Shown: one piece after another, positions 17,985-56,821 of the stretch
How the letters are laid out: every line of letters begins with the position of its first letter
Position numbering within the stretch: the first letter of the stretch is position 1
NCBI GenBank assembly: GCA_021772075.1
Contig: JAETNQ010000006.1
Span: 13,380 to 77,379 of the forward strand
Reading direction: 5' to 3'
From: Lachnospiraceae bacterium
Lineage (GTDB): Bacteria; Bacillota; Clostridia; Lachnospirales; Lachnospiraceae
DNA length: 64,000 bases
Position numbers and translations under genes: made by a program
Notes under the pieces: model-generated
The model's database searches: none
The model's input: only the letters and a program-made list of their open reading frames with translations
What the model was told of the DNA's origin: nothing

Positions 17985-18046
17985 CGTGAAGAAAAGTTCT
18001 AAAGCTCACAGCAAGGGCTGATTGTGGGATGCCGCGCAGCGGCATC
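17985..18046 (+). repeat. Truncated/degenerate copy of the ~115-nt structured element
   Basis: CGTGAAGAAAAGTTCTAAAGCTCACAGCAAGGGCTG matches the 5' third of the copies at 45388, 49376 and 53866. Confidence 0.65.
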
Positions 18047-18058
18047 ATGGAGGGTAGA

Positions 18059-18943
18059 ATGAAAAAAACAGAACGGAAAAAATTATGCCGCATTTGTTTA
18101 TGCATAGTACTTTTGTCTGTCAGCTGTTTGGGTGTGCTTTCTGGCTGCGGGGCGTTGCCGCAGAGTGCAGCCGTTGGGGAAATGCCGGAAAATCCCGGCA
18201 TCAGAGTAACATTTTTTGATGTGGGGAAGGGAGACGCGATCCTTATTGAGACAGAAAATCACAGTATGCTTATCGATTCCGGCTATGATGATACGGCGGG
18301 GCTTATTTTGGGGTATTTGGAGCGCGAAGACATCGACCGGCTGGATTATATGCTCATTACCCACTTTGACAAGGATCATGTAGGCGGAGCGGACCGGGTG
18401 CTGGAAGCCGTCGAAGTGGGGGAGGTTCTTCAGCCGGATTACGAATCCGAAGCCAAACAATATCGCGAATATATGGAAACGATGGAAGCAGGGAAGATGC
18501 GCCCCCGGCTCGTCACGGAAACACTCAGCCTGTCGCTGGATGAAGCAGAACTTCTGGTTTATCCTCCCCAGCGCCGGGATTATGAAGAGGAGGATAACGA
18601 TTTTTCGCTTGTTGTCAGTATGCGTTATGGAGAAAAAAGTTTTCTCTTTGCAGGAGACAGCGAAAGAGAACGGCTGGAGGAACTCCTTGGCCAACAGGAA
18701 TTTCCCCTCGCCCACGACATACTCAAAGTCCCTCACCACGGAAGGGCGGAAAAGAATTCAGAAGAATTCTTCCAGGCCGTCATGCCGGAAACTGCGGTCA
18801 TCACGTGTTCTAAAGATAAACTCCCCGACCGGGAAGTTCTTTTGCTTCTTGAGCAGCTGGGAACAAAAATATATTTGACTACGGAAGGATCCCTTACTTT
18901 TTTCTGTAACGGAAAAAAACTGGAGATTTTACAACAGCAATGA
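18059..18943 (+). CDS. ComEC/Rec2-like metallo-beta-lactamase-fold lipoprotein
   Basis: DVGKGDAILI, THFDKDHVGG, AGDSE, KVPHHG; lipobox-like LSGC. Confidence 0.88.
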   Translation: MKKTERKKLCRICLCIVLLSVSCLGVLSGCGALPQSAAVGEMPENPGIRVTFFDVGKGDAILIETENHSMLIDSGYDDTAGLILGYLEREDIDRLDYMLITHFDKDHVGGADRVLEAVEVGEVLQPDYESEAKQYREYMETMEAGKMRPRLVTETLSLSLDEAELLVYPPQRRDYEEEDNDFSLVVSMRYGEKSFLFAGDSERERLEELLGQQEFPLAHDILKVPHHGRAEKNSEEFFQAVMPETAVITCSKDKLPDREVLLLLEQLGTKIYLTTEGSLTFFCNGKKLEILQQQ

Positions 18944-43485: not shown

Positions 43486-45063
43486 GAGGGCACTGAAAAA
43501 GTCTGATTCTTTATGAAAAGAATCGGGCTTTTTCTAATGGAAAGAGTTATAATAAAAGAAAAGACAATGGAGATTCCAGAATGCTGAGAGATCATTCACA
43601 AATGACGCTGTCGTTATCGCCCTATCAGGGAATTTATGATGCCATTATTCCGGCAAACCACCTTCTGCGCAGGATCAAGGAGAACATAGATTTCAGTTTT
43701 GTAAATCCAATGCTGCGTAAACAGTATTGTGAAAGGTTTGGGCGTCCGGCAAAAGAACCGGGGATGATGTTCAAACTGCTGTTTTTGAAAAAGCTGTACG
43801 ACTTGTCCGATGAAACCCTGATCAGCAGTGCCCAGACAGATATGGCATATAAGTTTTTTCTGGATCTGGAACCAGAAGCGAAAATGGTTGATCCCAGTCT
43901 TCTGACGAAATTCAGAAAGACCCGTATTACAGAAGATATTTTGGAAGAAATGCTGAAGGAAACGATACAGCAGGCTCTGGATAAACGGCTTCGGAAAGAA
44001 ATCTATAAAAGTGCCTTTGAATTATCAGAAATATTTCCAGAGAAACCATCTCTGGAAGCCGGACTGGATGAGGAGATTGCCTATACGCGAGAACTGCTCA
44101 GGGTTCTTGAGGAGGGGATAGCGGCGAGCGGGAACCGAAAGATGCAGGATCTTTCCCAAAAAATGAAGGAACTGCTTGAGGATGAGCAGATCAGGGATAT
44201 CCGGTCGAAGGATGACAGGGATGCACGGTTCGGGCATAAAACATCAACAAGCACATTTTACGGATATAAAAACCACCCGGCAATGACACAGGAACGTCTG
44301 ACCGCAGGGATAAGCGTGACCCATGGAGGGGCGCCAGACGGGCAGGAATTACCGGGGCTGCTGGAAAAAGCACAGAAAAACGGGCTAAAGGCAACAGAAG
44401 TGATAGGAGATATGGCATATGTCAGCGACGATAATCTGGAAACCTGCGGGGAAGGGATCACATTGATAGCGCGGACAAATACAGCTGTAGCGGCGGCAGC
44501 AAGCGGGGAGCTGGAGGAAGGTTTCTGTTATAATAAGGATGCCGGAATGCTGCAGTGCCCAGCCGGTGAACTGGCGATGCGGGTGGAAAAGCGGACCGCA
44601 GCGAATGGAAATATCTATTTGAGGTATGTATTCAGCAAGGTCAAATGCAGGAAATGCCCATTAAGGGAAAGCTGCCGTGTAGGGAAAGGGAAATCAAAAG
44701 AACGCAGTTACAGCATGACGCAGGCAAGTGAGAAGAACCTGGGGCGGCTTAAATTTGAGGGAAGCGAATATTTCAGGGAGCGGATGAAGATCCGGCACCG
44801 GATGGAAGAAAAGAATGGAGAATTGAAAGAAGCCCACGGATTGCGCAGGGCAGATTCAAGAGGGCTGTTTGCCATGGAACCGCAGATGTATTTCACGGCG
44901 TTTGTGGCAAATGTGAAGAGGATCACAAAGCTGGCCGAGCCGGTTACGCAATAAGGAGGCTCTCTCTTTTTGCATGTTTTAGAATAAATTTGTGTATAGA
45001 AGCTGTTTATATATAGAAGGAAAAAACTCCCGCTATAAAAAGTGGGAGTTTTTCAGTACCCTC
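43486..45063 (+). mobile_element. IS1182-family insertion sequence (probably defective)
   Basis: Terminal IRs GAGGGCACTGAAAAAGTC (43486-43503) and GAGTTTTTCAGTACCCTC (45046-45063), 16/18 match; single transposase ORF. Confidence 0.85.
43581..44954 (+). pseudogene. IS1182 transposase with apparent in-frame internal deletion
   Basis: GRPAKEPGMMFK, DARFGHK, FYGYKNH, GDMAY, CPAG, EEKNGELK present; the usual IVD(S/A)TH segment is missing at ALDK/RLRKEI. Confidence 0.65.
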
Positions 45064-45101: not shown

Positions 45102-45340
45102 CCAAAAATCGCCCAAATAATGAAGCTTTAAACATAGCGGAAGCCCCTAAAACCGCGGCTTCCGCAGTCCTAAAGGCTTCCTTAGGGGAGGATAATCCAC
45201 CCCAAGGGGAGGATAAGTATTTTCCTTATCTTTCGCTATGCAATACAGATTTTCCATCTGTATTCATCAATGGAGGGGGATCCATTGATTACTCTTATTA
45301 TTGACCGGTTGAAAAAGTTTATTCATGATAAATAAAAAAA

Positions 45341-45369
45341 TTTACTTTTTTTTAAAAGTGGTATATACT
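45341..45369 (+). promoter_or_regulatory. sigmaA-type promoter
   Basis: TTTACT-N17-TATACT. Confidence 0.55.
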
Positions 45370-45387
45370 ATCGTTAGTTTGAACGCT

Positions 45388-45501
45388 TAGTGTGGAAAGA
45401 AGTTCTAAGGCTCACAGCAAAGGCTGTTTCGCCAAGAACTTCTAAATTCCACACCGAAGAATGCCTGAAAAGCGGCATTCTTCCCGTTGATGGTTTGTGC
45501 C
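45388..45501 (+). repeat. ~115-nt structured dispersed element, copy A
   Basis: Long interrupted hairpin plus GAAGAATGCC/GGCATTCTTC hairpin; homologous to 47258, 49376 and 53866. Confidence 0.92.
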
Positions 45502-45571
45502 AGGTCCAGGCGGGTGGCGTGAATGCAAAAAGAGAAATAGAACGATAATCGAGCAAAAGGTGGTATAAGAG

Positions 45572-46078
45572 ATGGCATTATTAAAAAAATGGAAAGAAAT
45601 GGCATATTCGGAGACAGCCAACAAAGGCGATCTGCAGAGGTTATGGGCTGATTATTTCGAGAAAGAGAAAGAAATTTATGCAGAATTATTAAAGAAACCG
45701 GAAGAAGTGGAAGAAGGAACTGTGAAGGAACTGGCGGAGAAATTCGGCGTGGATATTATGACCATGACCGGATTCTTGGACGGTATCAACGATAGCTTGA
45801 AGGAAGCAAATCCCATTGAAGAAATGGAAGAGGATACAAAGGTTCAGCTTGGATTCGATAAAGAACTTCTTTATAAAAATATGGTGGCTGCAGGAGCGGA
45901 CTGGCTCTATGGCTTGGAAGAATGGAATGATATTTTTGATGAGGAAACAAAAAAAGCGCTTTATAAAGAACAGAAGTCCTCTACTACGATCGTGAAGGGG
46001 GACAAGATATACCCTAACGATCCTTGTCCTTGTGGAAGCGGCAAAAAATATAAAAAATGCTGCGGCAGGAATCAGTAA
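45572..46078 (+). CDS. SEC-C metal-binding domain protein
   Basis: C-terminal [18 protein letters not shown]. Confidence 0.92.
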
Positions 46079-46089
46079 GGCGGCTGGCT

Positions 46090-46545
46090 ATGGAAAGCAG
46101 AGTTGAAAAAGCAGTACAAACTTTTGAGTCCGGTTTTGGCTGCGCCCAGTCCGTTTTTTCCACTTATGCAGATCTGTTCGGCATGGACAGGGAAACTGCC
46201 CTGAAGTTGGCAAGCCCTATGGGGGGCGGCATCGGGCGGATGCGGGAAGTATGCGGCGCAGTTTCTGCTATGGCATTGCTGGCGGGATTGAAGGATGGAA
46301 ATACCGACCCTGAGAATGAGGAAGGGAAGGAAAGGATATATGCCATCGTCCGGGAGATGAGCGACAGGTTCAAAGAGAAAAACGGAACGATCATCTGCCG
46401 GGAGCTGTTAGGAATATTGGAAAGAGAGCAGAGCGCCAGGCCGGAGAAACGGACAAAGGAATATTATGCGAGTCGTCCCTGCAGCAGGCTGGTGGCCAGC
46501 GCGGCAGAGATTTTGGAAGAGGTATTGTTGAAAGATATGGATTGA
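46090..46545 (+). CDS. C_GCAxxG_C_C family putative redox protein
   Basis: GCAQSV, GGGIG, CGAVS, IICRELL, RPC. Confidence 0.88.
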   Translation: MESRVEKAVQTFESGFGCAQSVFSTYADLFGMDRETALKLASPMGGGIGRMREVCGAVSAMALLAGLKDGNTDPENEEGKERIYAIVREMSDRFKEKNGTIICRELLGILEREQSARPEKRTKEYYASRPCSRLVASAAEILEEVLLKDMD

Positions 46546-46610
46546 TTTTCCAGAAGCTGCAATTTGACGGAAACAGAAGCTGGTTCAGCGCAAGTTGCAA
46601 AAATTTACTC

Positions 46611-46639
46611 TTTACATATCCGCAGAAATGTCATAGAAT
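46611..46639 (+). promoter_or_regulatory. sigmaA-type promoter of the T-box leader
   Basis: TTTACA-N17-TAGAAT. Confidence 0.7.
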
Positions 46640-46674
46640 AACGGAAGAAGAATAAAAGAATAACCAGAAAGTTT

Positions 46675-46955
46675 TGAAGAGACGAGTAAGATGCCAAAAG
46701 GTTCCAGAGAGAGATACCATCGGAAGGATCGAATGCCGGCGGCTGGAAGTATCTTAACCGGATGCATCCGAAGACCAGCTCTGAGCGGCCCTAATCCGGC
46801 CCGGAGGCTCCGTTAACGGCTGAATGAAGTGGTTTTGCATATGGGAGGAAGGCACCATATCCTCTATAGGCAGAGCAATAAGGGTGGAACCGCGTAATTG
46901 ATGAAAATACGTCCCTTACATTGTGCGAGCAATCGGGCAGTGTGAGGGACTTTTT
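46675..46955 (+). ncRNA. T-box riboswitch, Thr specifier (ACC)
   Basis: AGTA/GAA loop-E, AGAGA and GGCTGGAA motifs, specifier ACC at 46774-46776, T-box AATAAGGGTGGAACCGCG (46878-46895), terminator GTCCCTTACA...TGTGAGGGAC-TTTTT. Confidence 0.92.
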
Positions 46956-47023
46956 ATGTGCAGGCCCGCATAGGGAAGTGTCCTGCCCGATGATGGTAAA
47001 AGGAAAAGAAGGAGGAAGAAAAA

Positions 47024-47260
47024 ATGCAGGAAAAATGGAAAGAATTACAGGTGGTTTTAGAGGAAATGAAAACGATGAAGAAAAAGGAGTATTTTCTGAT
47101 GCTGGCGGTATGCCTGCTTTCCGGCCTGGTGGTCGGGATGCTGGTTTCCCCGAAAAAACAAGTTATGGTGGGGAGCAATAATGGAAATAATAACCGCAGC
47201 GGCAAAGGAAGATGCGGGGAATGTGATTTTGAAGACGGAGATTATGACTGGGAAGATTAG
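47024..47260 (+). CDS. Small single-TM hypothetical protein
   Basis: Strong RBS AGGAGG; TM YFLMLAVCLLSGLVVGMLV; Asn-rich and acidic tail. Confidence 0.7.
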   Translation: MQEKWKELQVVLEEMKTMKKKEYFLMLAVCLLSGLVVGMLVSPKKQVMVGSNNGNNNRSGKGRCGECDFEDGDYDWED

Positions 47261-47389
47261 CGTGAGAAGAACTTCTAAGACTTGCACCAGTGGGTGCTTC
47301 GTCAAGAAGTTCTAGACTTGCTTCGCAAGTCTTTCTCACGCCGGAGAACGCCTGAAATACGGCGTTCTTCTCATGGATGATTTATGCCG
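47258..47389 (+). repeat. ~115-nt structured dispersed element, copy B (extra hairpin)
   Basis: Same architecture plus inserted AGACTTGC-TTC-GCAAGTCT. Confidence 0.9.
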
Positions 47390-47419
47390 TGGAGAAATTT
47401 TGGAAAGGAGAAGAAAAAA

Positions 47420-49378
47420 ATGGTTATTACATTGAAAGACGGAAGTAAAAAAGAGTATGCGTCGCCCATGAGCGTGATTGATATCGCGTCGGATATCAGC
47501 GAAGGGCTGGCAAGGGTGGCCTGTGCAGGGGAAATCGATGGGAAAGAGGCGGATCTGCGGACGATGGTGGACGGCGACTGCCAGCTCAATATATTGACTG
47601 CTAACGATAAACAGGGTCTTCAGGTAGTAAGGCATACGGCTTCCCATGTGCTGGCAGAGGCGGTGAAGAGGCTTTATCCCGATGCCAAGCTGGCGATCGG
47701 GCCAAGCATCGACACCGGGTTTTACTATGATTTTGAACATGCTCCTTTTTCCAGGGAAGACTTGGATCAGCTGGAAGCGGAAATGAAGAAAATTATCAAA
47801 GAGGGAAAGAAGCTGGAGAAATTTACGCTGCCCAGGGAAGAAGCCATGAAATTTATGGAAGAAAAAGGCGAGCCTTATAAAGTGGAATTGATTCGTGACC
47901 TGCCGGAAGATGCGGTGATTTCCTTCTATCAGCAGGGGGATTTTGTGGATCTTTGCGCCGGTCCTCATTTGATGAGTACCAAAGGGATTAAAGCGTTTAA
48001 GCTGATCTCCTCTTCGGGCGCTTATTGGCGGGGGAATTCCGACAATACCATGCTGCAGAGGATTTATGGTACCGCATTTAATAAAAAAGAGGAATTGGCG
48101 GATTATCTGGAATATCTGGATAATATTAAAAAAAGGGATCATAACAAGCTGGGCAGGGAGATGGAATTGTTCGCTACGGTGGACGTGATCGGGCAGGGGC
48201 TTCCGCTGTTAATGCCCAAAGGAACAAAAATGATCCAGACAATGCAGCGCTGGATCGAAGATGAAGAGGAAAAACGGGGTTATATGAGAACCAAGACCCC
48301 TTTGATGGCGAAAAAAGATCTGTATATCATTTCCGACCACTGGGATCATTATAAAGAAGGGATGTTTGTGCTTGGTGATGAGACGGATGAAAAATCGGAA
48401 GTCTTCGCCCTGCGCCCTATGACATGCCCGTTCCAATATTATGTTTATAAGCAGAGTCAGAAATCGTACAGGGATCTGCCGTGCCGTTACGGGGAGACTT
48501 CCACCATATTCAGGAACGAAGATTCCGGCGAAATGCACGGGCTTACCCGTGTGCGCCAGTTTACGATTTCCGAAGGGCATCTGATCGTACGTCCGGACCA
48601 GATCGAGGAAGAGTTCAGAGGCTGCGTGGATCTTGCAAAATATTGCATGACGACGCTGGGACTCCAGGATGATGTAACCTACCGATTATCTTTGTGGGAT
48701 GCGAATAATCAGGATCACTATCTGGGAACAGAGCAGCAGTGGAACGAAGTGCAGGATATGATGCGTACGATTTTGAACCATATCGGCATTGAGTACACCG
48801 AGGAAGAAGGAGAAGCGGCGTTTTACGGGCCGAAACTGGATATTCAGGCGAAAAATGTATATGGCAAGGAAGACACGATGATTACGATCCAGCTGGATAT
48901 GTTCCTGGCAGAGCGTTTCGATATGACATATGTGGATCGTGACGGGGAAAAGAAACGGCCTTATATTATCCACAGGACTTCGATGGGGTGCTATGAGAGG
49001 ACATTGGCATGGCTGATCGAGAAATACGAAGGCAAGTTCCCTACATGGCTTTGCCCGGAACAGGTAAGGGTTCTTCCGATTTCGGAAAAATACGAAAGCT
49101 ATGCGAAAGAAGTGGAAAAGGAACTGAAGGAGAATGGCATATTGACTACGGTGGATAACCGTTCCGAAAAGATCGGCTTCAAGATTCGGGAAGCGAGATT
49201 GGCAAAACTGCCGTATATGCTTATTATAGGGCAGAAAGAAGAAGAGGATAAGACCGTTTCGGTTAGAAGTCGTTTTGCAGGAGACGAGGGCGTAAAACCT
49301 TTGGATGAATTTATCGGACAGATTTGCAAGGAAATCAGGACGAAAGAAATCCGGAAAGAAGAGATCGCGGAAAATTAG
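47420..49378 (+). CDS. thrS: Threonine--tRNA ligase
   Basis: TGS domain, RHTASHVLA, DLCAGPH, RDHNKLG, RPMTCP, FYGPKLD. Confidence 0.97.
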   Translation: MVITLKDGSKKEYASPMSVIDIASDISEGLARVACAGEIDGKEADLRTMVDGDCQLNILTANDKQGLQVVRHTASHVLAEAVKRLYPDAKLAIGPSIDTGFYYDFEHAPFSREDLDQLEAEMKKIIKEGKKLEKFTLPREEAMKFMEEKGEPYKVELIRDLPEDAVISFYQQGDFVDLCAGPHLMSTKGIKAFKLISSSGAYWRGNSDNTMLQRIYGTAFNKKEELADYLEYLDNIKKRDHNKLGREMELFATVDVIGQGLPLLMPKGTKMIQTMQRWIEDEEEKRGYMRTKTPLMAKKDLYIISDHWDHYKEGMFVLGDETDEKSEVFALRPMTCPFQYYVYKQSQKSYRDLPCRYGETSTIFRNEDSGEMHGLTRVRQFTISEGHLIVRPDQIEEEFRGCVDLAKYCMTTLGLQDDVTYRLSLWDANNQDHYLGTEQQWNEVQDMMRTILNHIGIEYTEEEGEAAFYGPKLDIQAKNVYGKEDTMITIQLDMFLAERFDMTYVDRDGEKKRPYIIHRTSMGCYERTLAWLIEKYEGKFPTWLCPEQVRVLPISEKYESYAKEVEKELKENGILTTVDNRSEKIGFKIREARLAKLPYMLIIGQKEEEDKTVSVRSRFAGDEGVKPLDEFIGQICKEIRTKEIRKEEIAEN

Positions 49379-49489
49379 TGTGGAAAGAAGTTCTAATGCT
49401 CACGCCAAAGGGCGTTTCGCAAAGAACTTCTAAGTTCCACACTGAAGAACGCCTGAAATACGGCGTTCTTCCTGTTGATGGTTTGTGCC
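49376..49489 (+). repeat. ~115-nt structured dispersed element, copy C
   Basis: Begins on the thrS TAG stop; near-identical to copy A with compensatory changes. Confidence 0.92.
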
Positions 49490-49514
49490 GCCGGGAGGCG
49501 GCGTGGGGGTTAGC

Positions 49515-51050
49515 ATGAAGAGACGGACATACGAAGACTGGTTCGGAATGGTTTTTTTTGCAGCGGCCTGCGGGATGCTGGTTCTGTCGGTAAGGCTTTG
49601 CTTTGCCGATGGGATATGGTATGACGAGTTATTCACGATGGGGCTTACGGAAAGAAGCTTCGGGGAATTGACAGCGCTGACGGCGAGGGATGTGCATCCG
49701 CCTGTTTATTATTATTTTGTAAAAGCGGTCAGAGGAATCATACAGGGAATGGTGCGGGGAGCGGACGGCATCGTGATCGGCAAGCTTTGCTCCATCCTTC
49801 CTCTGGCAGGTTTGTTTGTATACGCCGCAACGATGGTCCGGCGGCGCTTTGGCTGGCTGTGCGCCGGACTGTTTGCATTCGGTATAACGGCGATGCCCAG
49901 TTTGTTCCAGTATACGGTGGAAATCAGGATGTATACATTGGCGATGTTTTTCGTAACTGCCGCATTTCTTCACGCTTATGAGGTGGTCTGCGGAGTAGGG
50001 GATAGCGGGGGAAGCAGGAAGAAAGATTGGGCCTGCCTGGCGGTTTATGGGATTCTGGCCGCTTATACCCACTATTTTGCCGGCGCAGCCGCAGCGATGG
50101 TATATTTGTTTCTCTTGGCTTATCTTATCATAAAGAAGGCTGCGAAGGAAGAAAAAAGAAAATGGTTTCTCTGCGTCCTGGCATCTGTGGCGGCTTATCT
50201 GCCATGGGCAGCCGTGGTGGTTCGGCAGATGGCCCAGGTAAAAGAGAATTATTGGATTCTGCCGCTGACATGGAGAACCTTTGGCTCCTGCGTGAAGTTC
50301 CTGATGAAGCCTCCTTTTGGCGGAGGTATCTTTCAGGTCGCGGCGGCGGTTGTGCTTTTTGCCGTTTATGTGGGTTTGCTGTTTTACGGCTTGTGGAAAA
50401 GCAGGAAAATTCCGGCGGAGGTTTTTTTGATCTTGTCCGGTACCGGCGTATTGGCAGGGGTCGTGCTTTTTGGATTTGCAGCGTCTTATCTGCTGCGTCC
50501 GGTATTTATCGTCCGGTATATGGTTCCGGCGGCAGGATGCTTTTGGCTTTCCTTTGCCTTTTTTGCCAGCAGGGCAGTAAAAACCAGGAAAATATTTCTT
50601 CCCGTCCTGGGATTGGTATTCCTGCTGGGAATCGGCGATTACCGGTGGTTCCGCAACGATGAGACATGGCGCAGGGTGCGTATGGAAGAGGTGGAAGAAG
50701 CGCTCGGGCAGATCGCGCCGGAGGACGCGGTCGTTACCCAGTTTAACCAAGTGCAGGGAGTGGCCGGTTATTACCTGGAAAATGAGATACATCTTTGGAA
50801 TGCGGAACCGGAGCTGCTGATCAGCGATATTTTTGAAAATAAATATTTTTCTCTTTCTTCGACAGAAGATTTGAAGGATTGGATGGAAGAGGGAAAAAAT
50901 GTTTGGTTTATCGGGAATAAGGGCAGCGGCCTGCTGGAAGAGTGGAAAGAAGAGGGAATTCTCGCCGAAGAAAAGCAGGAAGTTATGCTGGAAGTATATT
51001 GGATTACGATGTACCGGCTGTATGAGGAAACACCGGAGGGCGAACCATAA
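49515..51050 (+). CDS. GT-C fold membrane glycosyltransferase (PMT/ArnT-like)
   Basis: IWYDELFT, DVHPPVYY, EIRMY, YTHYF; multi-TM. Confidence 0.8.
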   Translation: MKRRTYEDWFGMVFFAAACGMLVLSVRLCFADGIWYDELFTMGLTERSFGELTALTARDVHPPVYYYFVKAVRGIIQGMVRGADGIVIGKLCSILPLAGLFVYAATMVRRRFGWLCAGLFAFGITAMPSLFQYTVEIRMYTLAMFFVTAAFLHAYEVVCGVGDSGGSRKKDWACLAVYGILAAYTHYFAGAAAAMVYLFLLAYLIIKKAAKEEKRKWFLCVLASVAAYLPWAAVVVRQMAQVKENYWILPLTWRTFGSCVKFLMKPPFGGGIFQVAAAVVLFAVYVGLLFYGLWKSRKIPAEVFLILSGTGVLAGVVLFGFAASYLLRPVFIVRYMVPAAGCFWLSFAFFASRAVKTRKIFLPVLGLVFLLGIGDYRWFRNDETWRRVRMEEVEEALGQIAPEDAVVTQFNQVQGVAGYYLENEIHLWNAEPELLISDIFENKYFSLSSTEDLKDWMEEGKNVWFIGNKGSGLLEEWKEEGILAEEKQEVMLEVYWITMYRLYEETPEGEP

Positions 51051-51079
51051 AAATAACTAAAAATAAAATAAATGAAAAT

Positions 51080-51110
51080 GCATAAGCTGGATAGTTTTCA
51101 GCCATACTGA
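51080..51110 (+). promoter_or_regulatory. Putative sigmaG-type promoter
   Basis: GCATAA-N17-CATACTGA upstream of the DUF1540-like gene. Confidence 0.6.
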
Positions 51111-51160
51111 TAAAGAAACATCATGTTAAGACAAGTCTGGGAAAATCAGGAGGTTAAACT

Positions 51161-51475
51161 ATGGCTCAATTAGACTGTTCGGTAGAGAATTGTATTTATA
51201 ACAAAGAAGAATGTTGCTGCAAAGGCGATATTATGGTCGGCGGAAAACACGCGGACAAAAAGGACGATACTTGCTGCGAAAGTTTTGCGGAGAAACGCGG
51301 CGACTCTTATACGAGCGCTTTGGAACATCCTTGCAGAACGATCAGCATCGACTGCGAGGCGGTAAAATGTGTTTATAACAGCAATTACAAATGCCATGCG
51401 GAACATGTGGACATCAAAGGCTGCGGCGCTTGCGACTGCAGGGAAACGGCCTGCGCGACCTTTAAGGAAAGATAA
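51161..51475 (+). CDS. DUF1540 domain protein (two Cys-rich repeats)
   Basis: CSVENCIYN...C...T.CESF repeated twice. Confidence 0.8.
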   Translation: MAQLDCSVENCIYNKEECCCKGDIMVGGKHADKKDDTCCESFAEKRGDSYTSALEHPCRTISIDCEAVKCVYNSNYKCHAEHVDIKGCGACDCRETACATFKER

Positions 51476-51668
51476 GAAAACGGCGGAAATCATTTCAGAG
51501 TCAGGAAGGGAATCCCGGAAACGGGGTTCCTTTTTTGTAGCCGTCCCCAATAGCATGGATTGGAAAATAATTTGGGATAAATCTGTTTTTGGGACTTGCA
51601 CATGCCATATGTTTTCTCTATAATAAATAGCGGAATAGAGAACGATGCATTTGGATATGGGAGCGAAA

Positions 51669-52310
51669 ATGAAAAATAAATGGGTAATCGTGCTGGCTGG
51701 AGCAGGGGCGGCGGTGATGCTTTTCTTTGGGGGGATGTTTGCGGTAAATACCGTTTTTGCGTCGGAACAGAGGGCGGCGGTAGAAAGCGGGCTTACGGGA
51801 ACGCAGCTTCATGCGCTTGCCGGCATGGAAGCGAAAAAAGCGTATAAAAAAGAGGTATATGGCGATTTGGGATGCACGGTAGTCCTTCCCGATGGTTATG
51901 TCCCGAGCGGGGATATAAAAGGTATGTATTTATCGGAACGCAATCCTCTGGATTCTTCCAATATTTATTATACCGCATCGGAAAATGTGGACGGGGAAGC
52001 GTTGGATAAAATGCTGGGATCCGATGAATATAAGAAGCGGATGGAAGAAAAACTGAAAGAAACCTATGGACAGCAGGCAGAGGTAGACCGCTTCCAATAT
52101 ACGAAGACAGAAGTGAGCGGATGCCCCGCGCATAAAGTGGAGTTATCCTGTAAAGCCGGGGAAACGGAGATGGACCAGCTGATCTATATTATTATTGCGG
52201 ATAAAGTTTATACCGTCACTTATTCCCAGTCGGCGGACGATGAAAGGATGGAAGAATTCCGTAAAAGCGCGGAGACAATACGATTGGTATTTGCGCAGGA
52301 TTTTATGTGA
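51669..52310 (+). CDS. Hypothetical membrane-anchored protein (PsbP/DcrB-like)
   Basis: N-terminal TM; C-terminal DKVYTVTYS beta pattern. Confidence 0.6.
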   Translation: MKNKWVIVLAGAGAAVMLFFGGMFAVNTVFASEQRAAVESGLTGTQLHALAGMEAKKAYKKEVYGDLGCTVVLPDGYVPSGDIKGMYLSERNPLDSSNIYYTASENVDGEALDKMLGSDEYKKRMEEKLKETYGQQAEVDRFQYTKTEVSGCPAHKVELSCKAGETEMDQLIYIIIADKVYTVTYSQSADDERMEEFRKSAETIRLVFAQDFM

Positions 52311-52382
52311 TCAACGAAAATAATTCGACGAAAAGAATTCGACGAAAAGAATTCGGTGAAAATAATTCTGGGAAAAAAGATA

Positions 52383-52411
52383 TTGACATACCATAGGGAT
52401 AGTGTTATAAT
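52383..52411 (+). promoter_or_regulatory. sigmaA promoter of infC-rpmI-rplT
   Basis: TTGACA-N17-TATAAT with TG extension. Confidence 0.9.
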
Positions 52412-52466
52412 CCATAAGGATTCGGCGATAGAATGAAAGCGTATGGCGTGAAGCCGGATCATTATC

Positions 52467-52599
52467 AAGCAGAGTATCCACTCTCACCCTGCGGCAAACG
52501 GGCTGGCAGGCGTTCATAAGCCAGGATTCTGTATCAGGCTGCATATACAGTCTTAGGCATTTTGAAAATAGGTGGATAGCTGTGCTATCCATTTTTTTA
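52467..52599 (+). ncRNA. Ribosomal protein L20 leader
   Basis: AAGCAGAGTATCCACTCTCACC 5' motif; TATCCAC can pair with GTGGATA, which overlaps the terminator TGGATAGC-TGT-GCTATCCA-T7; upstream of infC-rpmI-rplT. Confidence 0.75.
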
Positions 52600-52623
52600 G
52601 CGTATTATGAGGAGGACAAAGCC

Positions 52624-53130
52624 ATTAGCGATTTATTTATTAACGAGCAGATTAGAGACAAGGAAGTACGTGTGATCGGTGAAGATGGGGAACAATTAGG
52701 TATCATGCCTTCCAGGGAAGCGCTCCGTTTAGCGGAGGAAGCCGGATTGGATCTGGTGAAGATTGCCCCTACTGCAAAGCCGCCTGTCTGCAAGATTGTG
52801 GATTACGGTAAGTTCCGGTATGAGCAGGCGAGGAAAGAAAAGGAAGCGAGAAAGAAACAGAAGATTATTGAGATCAAGGAGATCCGTTTATCGCCCAATA
52901 TTGATACCAATGATTTGAATACAAAAATAAGCGCGGCCAGAAAGTTTATTACCAAGGGTGATAAGGTAAAGATCACTCTCCGTTTCAGAGGACGCGAAAT
53001 GGCGCATATGGCAAACAGCAAGCATATCTTGGACGATTTTGCGGAAGCGCTTTCCGATATTGCTTCGATAGAAAAAGCGCCGAAGGTGGAGGGAAGAAGC
53101 ATGACTATGTTTTTAACTGAAAAGCGTTAG
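52624..53130 (+). CDS. infC: Translation initiation factor IF-3 (ATT start)
   Basis: INEQIRDKEVRVI, VCKIVDYGK, KEIRLSP; ATT at 52624 after GAGGAGG. Confidence 0.96.
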   Translation: MSDLFINEQIRDKEVRVIGEDGEQLGIMPSREALRLAEEAGLDLVKIAPTAKPPVCKIVDYGKFRYEQARKEKEARKKQKIIEIKEIRLSPNIDTNDLNTKISAARKFITKGDKVKITLRFRGREMAHMANSKHILDDFAEALSDIASIEKAPKVEGRSMTMFLTEKR

Positions 53131-53179
53131 TTCGTACAGTTAAAATAGATAAAAATGAGGAAGTATAGGAGGAATTGAT

Positions 53180-53377
53180 ATGCCTAAAATGAAGACAAGC
53201 AGAGCTGCTGCGAAACGTTTTAAAGTAACGGGAACAGGTAAGTTAAAAAGAAACAAAGCTTATAAAAGCCATATCTTAACAAAGAAATCCCCTAAGAGAA
53301 AGAGGAATCTTAGAAAATCGACGGTTACAGATAAGACGAACGTTAAGAATATGAAGAAGATTTTACCGTATCTGTAA
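53180..53377 (+). CDS. rpmI: 50S ribosomal protein L35
   Basis: [21 protein letters not shown]. Confidence 0.97.
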
Positions 53378-53415
53378 GAGTAACATTTTTATAAGTCGTA
53401 AGGAGGAAACAAGAC

Positions 53416-53772
53416 ATGGCAAGAATTAAAGGCGGAATGAAAGCCAGAAGAAGACATAACAGAGTATTAAAGCTTGCAAAGGGATACAGAGGCGCAAGGT
53501 CAAAACAGTATAGAATAGCAAAGCAGGCAGTAATGAGGGCGCTGAATTCTTCCTATGCGGGAAGAAAGCAGAGAAAGCGCGAGATGAGGAAACTGTGGAT
53601 CACCCGTATCAATGCGGCGGCAAGGATGAACGGTCTTTCTTACAGCAAGTTTATGTATGGTTTGAAGCTTGCGGAAGTAGATATTAACCGCAAGATGCTT
53701 TCCGAGATGGCAGTATACGATGCAGAGGGCTTTAAGGAATTGGCAGAACTGGCAAAAAGCAAAATTGCATAA
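53416..53772 (+). CDS. rplT: 50S ribosomal protein L20
   Basis: LKLAKGYRG, RKLWITRINAAAR, INRKMLSEMA. Confidence 0.97.
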   Translation: MARIKGGMKARRRHNRVLKLAKGYRGARSKQYRIAKQAVMRALNSSYAGRKQRKREMRKLWITRINAAARMNGLSYSKFMYGLKLAEVDINRKMLSEMAVYDAEGFKELAELAKSKIA

Positions 53773-53790
53773 TAGCAGCAGATAAAAATA

Positions 53791-53833
53791 GAAACTCCGC
53801 AAGAATTGAACTTGTGGAGTTTTCATATTTTTT
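53791..53833 (+). terminator. Intrinsic terminator after rplT
   Basis: GAAACTCCGCAAG-AATTGAA-CTTGTGGAGTTTT plus T tract. Confidence 0.8.
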
Positions 53834-53865
53834 TTATTATTTTTTATGGAAGATTGGGTGTATAC

Positions 53866-53971
53866 TAGTGTGAGAAGTACTTCTAAAGCTCATGCCAGAG
53901 GGCATTTCGCTAAGAAGTACTAAGTCTCACACCGAAGAACGCCTAAAATAAGGCGTTCTTCCCATGGATGA
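53866..53971 (+). repeat. ~115-nt structured dispersed element, copy D
   Basis: Same architecture; its TAG overlaps a TATACT -10-like box. Confidence 0.92.
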
Positions 53972-53989
53972 TAAAGGAAGGACAGGAAT

Positions 53990-55438
53990 ATGGCAGTGTT
54001 GGATGGACGGAAACCGGAGAAGGTATTCCGGTATTTTGAGGAAATATGCGGGATTCCCCATGGATCGGGGAATGTGGATAAATTGAGCGATTACCTGGTG
54101 GATTTTGCCCGGAAAAGAGGGTTATCCCATATCCAGGATGAATGGAAAAATGTGATTATTATGAAGGAGGCTGCGCCTGGATACGAAGAGGAGGAGCCTG
54201 TGATCCTGCAGGGGCATATGGATATGGTGGCGGTAAAAAAGCCGGGTTCTGCTGTCGATATGGCTAAGGACGGATTGCGCCTTGCTGTGGACGGGGATGA
54301 TTTGTATGCGGAGGATACGAGCCTGGGCGGGGACGACGGAATTGCGGTGGCTTATGCCATGGCGCTTCTGGATTCGGACGATATTGCCCACCCCCGGCTG
54401 GAAGTAATTATCACTGTAGATGAGGAAGTGGGAATGGACGGCGCAAGGGAGCTGGATGTTTCCATGCTGAAAGGGAGACGGATGCTGAACCTGGATTCCG
54501 AAGAGGAAGGCATCATCCTTGCAGGATGCGCGGGAGGCGCAAGGGTGGATTGGACGTTTCCTGTGCGCAGGGAGGAAAAAGAGGGAAAGCGCTATCGTAT
54601 AAGCGTAAAAGGGCTTCAAGGCGGCCATTCCGGCGCAGAGATCGACAAGGAAAGAGGGAATGCCAATGTACTTATGGGAAGGCTTTTGTATAGGCTGCAT
54701 AAGGCAACGGCGGTATATGTGGAAGAATTGGAGGGGGGATTGGCCGATAATGCGATTCCGAGGGAAGCGGCTGTTGTTCTTCTCGCGGAGGCAGAAAACG
54801 GAACTGCTATAAAAGCGGAAGTATTGGCCGTGGAAGAAGAATTCAGGCAGGAACTGCAGACAAAGGATCCCGGTGTTTTTCTTGAAATAGAAGAATTGGG
54901 AGACGGAAAGGGGGATTGCCTGGGGCGTGAAGAGACGGACAGACTGATCTCGCTTTTGTTTGCCGCGCCAAACGGCGTACAGGCGATGAGCGCCGATATC
55001 GAGGGGTTGGTGGAGACCTCTTTGAATATGGGAATCGTAAATTTGGGTAAAGACAAGGCGGCAGTCCAGTTTTCCGTAAGAAGCTCGCTGGAAAGCGCGA
55101 AGCGGGTTTTGATTGAAAAGCTGGAAAATATAGCGGCTATGGCGGGGGCGGCGCAGGAAGTCAGAGGGGATTATCCCGGCTGGGCTTATCGGAAGGTATC
55201 GCCGTTCCGGGATATGGCGGTAAAGGCGTTCCGTGATTTATATGGGAAAGAACCGGAGATACAGGCGATACATGCGGGGCTGGAATGCGGGATATTGTCA
55301 TCGAAAATACCGGATTTGGAGTGCATTTCCATCGGGCCGGATATGAAGGATATCCATACGACGGAGGAACGGCTGAGTATTTCATCCACAGAGCGGGTAT
55401 GGAATTATGTACTGGAGATATTGCGGCGAAAAGAGTAA
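53990..55438 (+). CDS. pepD: Aminoacyl-histidine dipeptidase (M20)
   Basis: ILQGHMDMV, LGGDDG, DEEVG, NLDSEE, GGHSG, HAGLECG, HTTEE. Confidence 0.93.
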   Translation: MAVLDGRKPEKVFRYFEEICGIPHGSGNVDKLSDYLVDFARKRGLSHIQDEWKNVIIMKEAAPGYEEEEPVILQGHMDMVAVKKPGSAVDMAKDGLRLAVDGDDLYAEDTSLGGDDGIAVAYAMALLDSDDIAHPRLEVIITVDEEVGMDGARELDVSMLKGRRMLNLDSEEEGIILAGCAGGARVDWTFPVRREEKEGKRYRISVKGLQGGHSGAEIDKERGNANVLMGRLLYRLHKATAVYVEELEGGLADNAIPREAAVVLLAEAENGTAIKAEVLAVEEEFRQELQTKDPGVFLEIEELGDGKGDCLGREETDRLISLLFAAPNGVQAMSADIEGLVETSLNMGIVNLGKDKAAVQFSVRSSLESAKRVLIEKLENIAAMAGAAQEVRGDYPGWAYRKVSPFRDMAVKAFRDLYGKEPEIQAIHAGLECGILSSKIPDLECISIGPDMKDIHTTEERLSISSTERVWNYVLEILRRKE

Positions 55439-56748: not shown

Positions 56749-56821
56749 CGGGGTGTGGCTCAGGTGGTAGAGCGCTACTTTAGGGAAGTAGAGGCCGCAA
56801 GTTCAAGTCTTGTCACTCCGA
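56749..56821 (+). tRNA. tRNA-Pro with anticodon AGG
   Basis: Acceptor CGGGGTG/CACTCCG plus A73, D arm GCTC/GAGC, anticodon arm CTACT-TTAGGGA-AGTAG, T arm GCAAG-TTCAAGT-CTTGT; no encoded CCA. Confidence 0.93.

Follow-up and report, generated by a model that had tools for sequence, protein, structure and literature searches.

Several families of small repeats described in other bacteria can be compared with a hairpin-forming element of Lachnospiraceae bacterium (assembly GCA_021772075.1), found as four full copies and one partial copy in a stretch of 64,000 nucleotides (contig JAETNQ010000006.1, positions 13,380 to 77,379 of the forward strand; the whole of it is called here the window). This element is probably a non-autonomous, modular and mosaic dispersed repeat, comparable to REP, BOX and MIRU, that occupies intergenic DNA in some Lachnospiraceae. 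The REP and BIME sequences of enterobacteria and pseudomonads, with the REPINs that are moved by RAYT, are, like the present element, abundant extragenic palindromes located near stop codons, with an NTAG head and an arrangement in mosaic arrays. Their transcription occurs together with that of operons, and a stop codon is often only a few bases away; REPs within about 15 nt of it affect termination-proximal translation and protect the upstream mRNA. The present element is, however, far longer and branched, its first module alone (M1) measuring 65-115 nt, whereas the REP/REPIN palindrome is short (20-40 nt) and has a GTAG or GTGG head. Moreover, its units are joined head-to-tail, not as alternating or inverted doublets, and always stand in sense orientation; the element carries its own stop codon and Shine-Dalgarno (SD) sequence, has no RAYT associated with it and occurs in Firmicutes.

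The BOX elements of Streptococcus pneumoniae, composed of boxA, boxB and boxC, can be likened to it by description: both have optional or repeated inner modules and stable predicted folds, are intergenic and vary between strains. The terminal complementarity between boxA and boxC is, conversely, absent from the present element. To our knowledge no transposase is known for BOX, and neither anchoring at stop codons nor carriage of a ribosome-binding site (RBS) has been reported for it; we also know of no mobilising activity for BOX, ERIC or MIRU. MIRUs resemble the present element in their location between operon genes, in their co-orientation and in the number of tandem units, which varies between strains (here 0, 1 or 2 at the nrdR site). 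MIRU units carry frames that overlap the stop and start codons of the flanking genes; the present unit starts with the upstream stop codon and ends with SD-TAG-N-RTG, and the TAG-T-GTG at its beginning opens a 17-codon frame whose peptide is not conserved. In addition, MIRUs are not strongly structured, whereas the present element is dominated by three covarying hairpins.

The Correia elements of Neisseria and the RUP of pneumococcus, which are true MITEs (small transposable elements with inverted repeats), share with it a size of 100-160 nt, a large number of copies and the ability to supply expression signals. Correia elements are transcribed with their neighbours, and their hairpins are RNase III substrates in Neisseria. 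These families have terminal inverted repeats, a TA duplication, insertions in either orientation and parent insertion sequence (IS) families, none of which is seen here. TAG does occur at both ends of full units, as a MITE-type duplication would, but the 5' G covaries within a helix, and the filled and empty sites that can be paired come from different species and are unclean. With the PATEs of IS200/IS605, which go in on the 3' side of a fixed word of four or five nucleotides, the element has in common the presence of hairpins and, as expected for them, the absence of terminal inverted repeats; however, the empty allele of one insertion site (site A) has no left TAG, and Y1 transposase genes do not follow the element. 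Finally, the attC sites of integrons also conserve structure over sequence, display conserved unpaired bases in a long imperfect hairpin, lie behind a stop codon and have a fixed orientation, but their RYYYAAC and GTTRRRY boxes are absent from the present consensus; furthermore, the genes that flank the present element are core housekeeping genes in conserved synteny, not cassettes, and its copies are dispersed.

Modular anatomy and preserved fold

The repeat, of about 115-170 nt, is modular: a TAG is followed by M1, which is a long branched hairpin, by M2, a hairpin of 10 bp, and in many copies by another hairpin, M3, with CATGGRGG-TTAG-N-RTG. In full units the order is (A)ATAG, M1, M2, a GAT(G/T)-TTTG tail, M3 and CATGGRGG-TTAG-N-RTG-ARA. 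Conservation at the 5' side starts about five bases before M1, with the consensus AATAG followed by YGTG, and the sequence further upstream is background. The T, A and G of the TAG are conserved at 75%, 90% and 86%, respectively, and in other species the element starts with TAG in 55 of 87 copies and with TAA in 7, so that the statement of the first-pass annotation that it always starts at TAG is nearly right. The G of this triplet is also the first base of the outer helix, where it covaries with its partner (GC 71, AU 11). In M1 the unpaired bases TTCTAA, CT, TTCG and AAGAA are invariant between covarying stems, and there are fixed points at which either of two different mini-hairpins may be added. 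The 10 bp of M2 are all perfectly paired and enclose a loop of 8 nt; the tail GATGGTTTGTG (GATTTGAG in other species) then leads into M3, whose stem covaries among species (CCGCC/GGCGG, ATTCCGC/GCGGAAT, TCGCAGC/GCTGCGA). An SD-like GGRGG, conserved at the 3' end, is located 5 nt upstream of an RTG. Conservation extends to about +12 past GGRGG even where a second unit does not follow (tandem units are found in only 4 of 31 cases), indicating that the unit ends with a copy of its own first dozen bases.

The four full copies of the window, which can be aligned over about 115 nt, are all on the plus strand and stand where they had been placed from the letters alone, each with a TAG followed by the same modules. 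Copy A (45388-45501) comprises the TAG at 45388-45390, M1 at 45390-45454, M2 at 45456-45483 and the tail GATGGTTTGTGCC to 45501; it lies in the 5' leader of a gene for a SEC-C-domain protein, about 20 nt past a promoter-like TTTACT-17-TATACT. In copy B (47258-47388) the TAG at 47258-47260 is the stop codon of a 78-aa open reading frame (ORF), M1 spans 47260-47341 and includes a 17-nt additional hairpin (GACTTGCTTCGCAAGTC, 47315-47331), M2 spans 47343-47370 and the tail reaches 47388; M3 is missing and the native RBS of thrS comes next. Copy C (49376-49513) is a full unit, whose TAG (49376-49378) is the thrS stop codon and is followed by M1 (49378-49442), M2 (49444-49471), the tail (49477-49489), M3 (GCCGCC-GGGA-GGCGGC, 49487-49502), an SD-like GGGGG (49505-49509) and TTAG (49510-49513), the ATG of the downstream gene being at 49515. 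Copy D (53866-53975) has its TAG (53866-53868) overlapping a TATACT box directly past the rplT terminator, then M1 (53868-53932), M2 (53934-53961) and the tail CCATGGATGA; it occupies the leader of an M20 peptidase gene, whose ATG is at 53990. In copies B and C the upstream gene ends on the TAG of the element, as had been noted at first reading for two copies. The partial copy at 17985-18057 (plus strand) is also real, and is internally deleted: it keeps the 5' half of M1, followed by M3 (GATGCCGC-GCAG-GCGGCATC) and CATGGAGGGTAG, with the ATG of the next ORF at 18059. The full unit reaches further in the 3' direction than the extent of about 115 nt originally assigned to the element, and includes M3, the SD-like GGRGG and a second TAG.

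The first-pass annotation had described one fold with compensatory changes common to the copies, and this description was confirmed. RNAalifold finds 35 pairs in the four copies, 12 of them with compensatory changes, and the full copy C folds at -70.7 kcal/mol, with z = -7.4 relative to shuffled sequences. Covariation was then analysed on 96 copies from other genomes, belonging to about 45 species and giving 3135 cells: 97.4% of these form standard pairs, and 31 of the 35 pairs have changed on both sides. None of 500 shuffles reaches any of five covariation measures, and strand-slid controls pair at 36-58%; this nearly complete pairing, compared with shuffles and slid controls, indicates that the structure is preserved. 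G·U and A·C are both one-step transition products, and selection on a sense-strand RNA normally tolerates the former and not the latter. In the present set G·U, with 44 cells, does not exceed A·C, with 46; for this reason the covariation gives no positive evidence for selection at the RNA level, with which an RNA role is nonetheless compatible. Changes that swap the two arms are frequent, as at one pair with CG in 46 cases and GC in 44. The pattern fits pairing at the DNA level, in either strand or in a hairpin, or a few perfect master copies with templated correction between the arms.

No terminal inverted repeats were found, the 5' end TAGYGTGARAAG showing no match with the reverse complement (CTAACCYCCATG) of the 3' end ...CATGGRGGTTAG. 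None of the three hairpins M1, M2 and M3 has a run of T behind it and no credible terminator-like site coincides with any copy, in agreement with the lack of a U tract noticed at first; an intrinsic terminator was thus rejected. The GTG located two bases past the TAG opens the 17-codon frame at the same place in every copy (45392-45445 in the window), which ends at the conserved TTCTAA or TTCTAG of the 3' arm; in arrays, the GGRGG of the preceding unit lies at a proper distance upstream of it. Inserted hairpins shift this frame. Coding potential was rejected, since the lengths of the inserted hairpins do not preserve a triplet frame, residues are altered by compensatory changes and array periods are 133 or 135 nt. 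A reassignment of TAG of the pyrrolysine type was rejected as well: TAG is an ordinary stop codon that ends 22% of the long ORFs of this genome, and the frame of the upstream gene meets a second stop codon (TAA) six codons past the element TAG. Finally, base-pairing, mainly as G·U, is feasible between the tail (GA)TTTGTG and CATGGGGG (49477-49513 in copy C, and likewise in other copies with M3), and could conceivably lengthen M3 over the SD-like bases and sequester them; this lower stem (GATTTG:CATGGRGG) is rich in G·U and is not kept in all variants.

Distribution, genomic context and turnover

A covariance model built from the four window copies was searched over the 3.48-Mb assembly from which the window derives (G000) and gave about 40 matches, including three head-to-tail pairs and copies at contig ends. 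Relatives were represented by one genome per species, many of them metagenome-assembled genomes (MAGs). Among congeners, 19 of 24 other species had matches, with 0-84 copies each (84 in G022); in other genera of the family, with one genome per genus, 18 of 250 were matched, several with 8-14 scored copies. No matches were present in 16 genomes from 16 other families of the order, and in an order-level sample searched with a broader model they were found only inside the Lachnospiraceae. An exact-pattern scan of species-representative genomes returned at least 113 stretches, nearly all labelled as Lachnospiraceae or its genera, with a few bins labelled otherwise; sources among the matches listed are MAGs from mouse, goat and rabbit gut and the isolate Lachnospiraceae bacterium 28-4. 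Nothing similar was found in plasmid and phage collections by permissive BLAST. The copies have no match in Rfam 15 either, at the gathering score or, over 45300-54100, at E values up to 10, the sole hits nearby being the Thr T-box and the weak L20-leader match described below, and the statement that the element is not a named family holds for this database. The copies belong to a family of small hairpin-forming repeats of gut Lachnospiraceae, which is patchy in its distribution across Lachnospiraceae, is apparently undescribed and often has an RBS for the next gene at its 3' end. Lachnospiraceae are major gut commensals, in which repeats of this kind have apparently not been described so far.

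The genomic context was scored on a simple longest-ORF gene map of the own genome, with crude calls. All 30 scored copies are co-oriented with a neighbouring gene, which extends to the genome what had been claimed for the window copies, and about 21 of the 30 lie between co-oriented genes, as MIRUs do; the remaining ones are located past the last gene of a unit, or in a 5' leader after a promoter-like site or a terminator (copies A and D). Of the 28 copies that could be assessed, 21 have a co-oriented ORF whose end falls at -3 to +9 of the element, and in other species an ORF of at least 60 codons with such an ending accompanies 61 of 87 copies. The anchoring stop codon is mostly the element TAG, sometimes a TAA at the same place or a TGA within GTG-TGA. 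On the 3' side, a loose scan found a long ORF starting 2-12 nt past the SD-like motif in 40 of 110 copies, and in one pair of filled and empty sites (L074) the first four codons of the downstream gene derive from the element. The functions of the neighbours are unrelated, and include thrS, nrdR, yajC, phosphoglycerate mutase, a glycosyltransferase, an AAA ATPase, an M20 peptidase, a SEC-C protein and a T2SS-F-like protein.

Sister species differ by gain and loss of copies, and the empty orthologous sites that the first-pass annotation had proposed to look for were found. Site C, between thrS and the next gene, is filled in G000 and also, by a different variant of 171 nt, in G042, which is the closest relative; G043, G024 and G022 lack a copy there, with spacers of 14-36 nt. 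Site A is empty in G042 and G043; site B is empty in the same two genomes, with a TGA stop codon in the former and TAA in the latter. Conversely, G043 carries the element at 11 further sites where G000 has none. The empty allele of most pairs shows a stop codon (TAA, TGA or TAG) exactly at the position of the element TAG; that of site A lacks any TAG. The presence of TAA or TGA, or the absence of a TAG, in empty alleles indicates that the element brings with it at least the G and probably the whole TAG, and the original idea of an element that targets TAG is not supported. Since the repeat replaces native intercistronic DNA and RBSs, it probably reshapes the expression of many operons.

Within the species, strains were compared by using contigs of other assemblies that encode identical flanking proteins. 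The positions of the copies are fixed and their content is variable: every strain seen has a copy at sites A, B, C and D, at EIIA-yajC and at pheA. At site D several strains have a deletion of 60 nt, which removes almost all of M1. At site B, one strain carries an M1 of the copy C type that follows the same TAG immediately; identity is 99.4% over the 939 nt upstream, and the 53 nt of M1 have 77% identity with the window and 97% with copy C. At site C at least three alleles are found behind an identical ThrS, one of them being chimeric between two M1 types and lacking an arm by deletion, and at the pheA site the 3' half differs in one strain. The nrdR site of a related species contains 0, 1 or 2 full units, always followed by the same 40-nt half-M1; these alleles form a series resembling a variable-number tandem repeat, which unequal recombination between units can produce. 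In the own genome the types of M1, of M2 and of the tail, and the optional hairpin, are present in every combination, indicating that modules are exchanged. Arrays are head-to-tail, and their units share a single TAG. Since unit number and variant differ between near-identical strains, the repeat is a ready-made marker for strain typing. It is also abundant enough to fragment assemblies, as exemplified by thrS, which in public assemblies is found alone on contigs of about 2 kb (2.04-2.10 kb) cut on both sides in the repeat.

Spread and upkeep of the repeat

Among the transposase families that act without inverted ends, Y1, Y2 and IS110 were profiled across 28 congeners. Y1 genes (PF01797; IS200/IS605, RAYT) are absent from G022 with its 84 copies and from G043, G003 and G009, and G000 has only a fragment broken by a stop codon; genomes with zero or one copy have instead 1-10 Y1 genes, with 10 in G018, which has no copies. 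Y2 genes (PF04986, IS91) were found in 7 of the 28 genomes, with no relation to copy number, and IS110 genes (PF01548) are absent from G022, G043 and G024 and do not track copy number. A transposase flanked by the element had also been suggested as something to look for: when the modules of the own genome were mapped, coding inserts were not found between any two element ends, nor was a parent IS with the same ends. The sole interrupted copy, on contig C76 (about 1100-1310), is cut after M1 by an unrelated insertion, at the far end of which the opposite strand codes for a C-terminus resembling that of a transposase; this insertion appears IS1182/IS5-like by eye, and shows that other IS elements land in the repeat.

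The first-pass annotation had offered two models, a cis-acting RNA motif and a mobile unit driven by a HUH-type enzyme. The mobile, dispersed unit gains support from the copies counted here and in congeners, the empty sites, the tandem arrays and the contig-end copies. For a repeat that is dispersed, gained and lost, arranged in arrays, mosaic by exchange of modules, strictly in sense orientation, anchored at stop codons and of preserved fold, the non-autonomous repeat akin to REP, BOX and MIRU remains the reading that we consider probable. Its palindromes would be preserved as DNA structures, or would simply have come down from a few masters and been mended by templated correction between the arms; G·U does not outnumber A·C, and GC/CG changes that swap the arms are frequent. 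Only when in sense would the element supply a stop codon for the gene in front and an SD sequence, sometimes also a start codon, for the gene behind; with its own stop codon and RBS, the element would be tolerated inside operons without truncating or silencing its neighbours, and sense insertions at stop codons would be the survivors of a selection filter. The spread probably occurs by recombination at the short TAG-N-RTG core, through integration into a look-alike junction or growth of an array at an existing TAG, with an enzyme that would act in trans. By analogy with REP, BOX and Correia elements, the hairpins, once transcribed, probably influence mRNA processing, mRNA stability or termination-proximal translation.

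A different reading is that of a cis-acting RNA module that "punctuates" operons, where M1 and M2 would be a processing site, a barrier to 3'-exonucleases or a protein-binding site, M3 with the SD would set the translation of the next cistron, and dispersal would be secondary. The strict sense orientation and the built-in translation signals, as the GGRGG conserved 5 nt before an RTG, fit this model; the very stable fold and the conservation of unpaired bases across genera, between stems that covary, also agree with it, and the outer helix, which begins with the stop codon's third base, would be melted by a ribosome that terminates there. On the other hand, G·U is not favoured over A·C, unlike in typical structured RNAs, and the neighbours are functionally unrelated; in sister species the same sites are empty with no visible replacement, strains tolerate the loss of most of M1 as well as chimeric or truncated versions, and Rfam has no match, so that this reading appears rather unlikely. 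The stop-codon anchoring and the growth of arrays would be accounted for by a site-specific mini-element, in which a unit-length, possibly circular intermediate would use a core of about 10 nt (TAG-N-RTG-ARA) at look-alike stop/start junctions, with a recombinase of the host or of a phage. The repetition of the first 12 nt past the 3' end even of single units, the single TAG common to adjoining units and the stop codon of most empty alleles, placed exactly at the element TAG, point in this direction, as do the near-identical strains with different variants behind the same TAG, in which the change begins at the first base past the TAG, where flanking homology ends. However, no recombinase was identified and IS110-type enzymes do not track the element; the sequences of empty alleles past the stop codon show no common RTG core, the right-hand junctions are unclean, with intergenic DNA replaced and not split, and unequal crossing-over together with template switching at hairpins could also yield arrays and allele switching. 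A mini-element of this kind is judged unlikely.

The same low likelihood is given to a related proposal, that of a site-specific mobile cassette aimed at operon junctions, which would integrate at the stop codon through a core made of the stop codon, one base and RTG-ARA, carrying its own stop codon and RBS. It would depend on a recombinase or an RNA-linked route outside the known IS families, and the bulged hairpins might be the recombination substrate, by analogy with attC; if this were true, the cassette could colonise tightly packed operons without polar damage. Movement as single-stranded DNA by a Y1 HUH transposase (RAYT or IS200/IS605 TnpA), as for a REPIN or a PATE, is very improbable, and the HUH-type driver proposed at first is not sustained: the NTAG head (ATAG, TTAG, GTAG) does recall the GTAG head of REP, hairpins are near both ends without terminal inverted repeats, most copies have the leading-strand orientation and pairing looks DNA-level, but Y1 genes do not follow the element in the genomes described above, inverted REP doublets are lacking in the head-to-tail arrays and no fixed target word is left of the insertion in empty sites, site A having no TAG. 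In addition, lagging-strand copies follow the gene and not replication; a clear one on contig C30 still follows its own gene and supplies its stop codon, and 2 of 5 lagging-strand copies of other species do the same. Equally remote is a classical MITE derived from a DDE transposon, either of the IS630/mariner type, with TA duplication, or of the IS5 type, with YTAR duplication. Its size would be suitable, insertion polymorphism is present and full units have TA or TAG at both ends (TAG...GGRGGT-TAG); against it, TAGYGTGARAAG and CTAACCYCCATG do not correspond, the G of the 5' TAG is a paired and covarying helix base, the own genome has no longer element with the same ends and the orientation is non-random.

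Several points weigh against the non-autonomous repeat as well. The right-hand junctions are unclean, since the native spacer and RBS are replaced and not displaced, and some "empty" alleles (L070 and the short nrdR allele) resemble the remnants of deletions. The empty alleles come from species whose flanks have an identity of only 82-93%, where the intergenic DNA has also changed, and for this reason the filled and empty pairs do not settle the mechanism; neither a clean target-site duplication nor a precise empty site at the strain level was found in these comparisons. No transposase or recombinase is tied to the element among the families profiled, and these negative profiles are suggestive only, being weakened by the frequent loss of multi-copy IS from MAGs. 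In a genome with strong GC skew, 28 of the 30 copies face the leading strand, with a gene bias of about 81%, so that replication and gene orientation are not cleanly separable. Selection alone may not explain why about 70% of the copies start at the very stop codon and not slightly further downstream, and a targeting mechanism may exist; furthermore, the sense orientation, the conservation of unpaired bases across genera and the 3' SD would also suit a selected RNA function. The puzzle is therefore that of a repeat with no inverted ends and no matching transposase, always in sense and with about 70% of its copies starting at a stop codon; its solution could reveal a new mode of DNA movement, or a strong selection filter on the survival of repeats in compact genomes.

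Other features near the copies

Two genes of the plus strand are adjacent to copies of the repeat: the 78-aa ORF (47024-47260), whose stop codon is formed by the first three bases of copy B, and thrS (47420-49378), which has copy B upstream and copy C at its stop codon. A T-box leader (Thr) is recognisable at 46665-46919, with 73.8 bits compared with an Rfam gathering score of 93, upstream of the 78-aa ORF, copy B and thrS; the gap between the T-box and thrS contains the small ORF and, in the window species only, copy B of the repeat.

Around site A, a contig of another assembly (L099, ENA ERZ27288243 k119_219701, about 1440-1716) has the left flank of a different copy of the own genome (C53:11136) on one side of the element and, on the other, the right flank that belongs to site A; this junction can be due to recombination between dispersed copies or to a chimeric assembly, and was not used as evidence. 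In a further contig (L098, 521-1822, corresponding to the window locus at about 43581-44954) a gene of the phage-integrase family lies just upstream of site A, a place where L099 has a different gene.

A weak match to an L20 leader (52461-52606; 27 bits, E 0.05) is located on the 5' side of infC-rpmI-rplT, and a perfect promoter-like TTGACA-17-TATAAT is present at 52383-52411. Finally, a tRNA gene at 56749-56821 (60.7 bits) is the sole match at the Rfam gathering score in the window.

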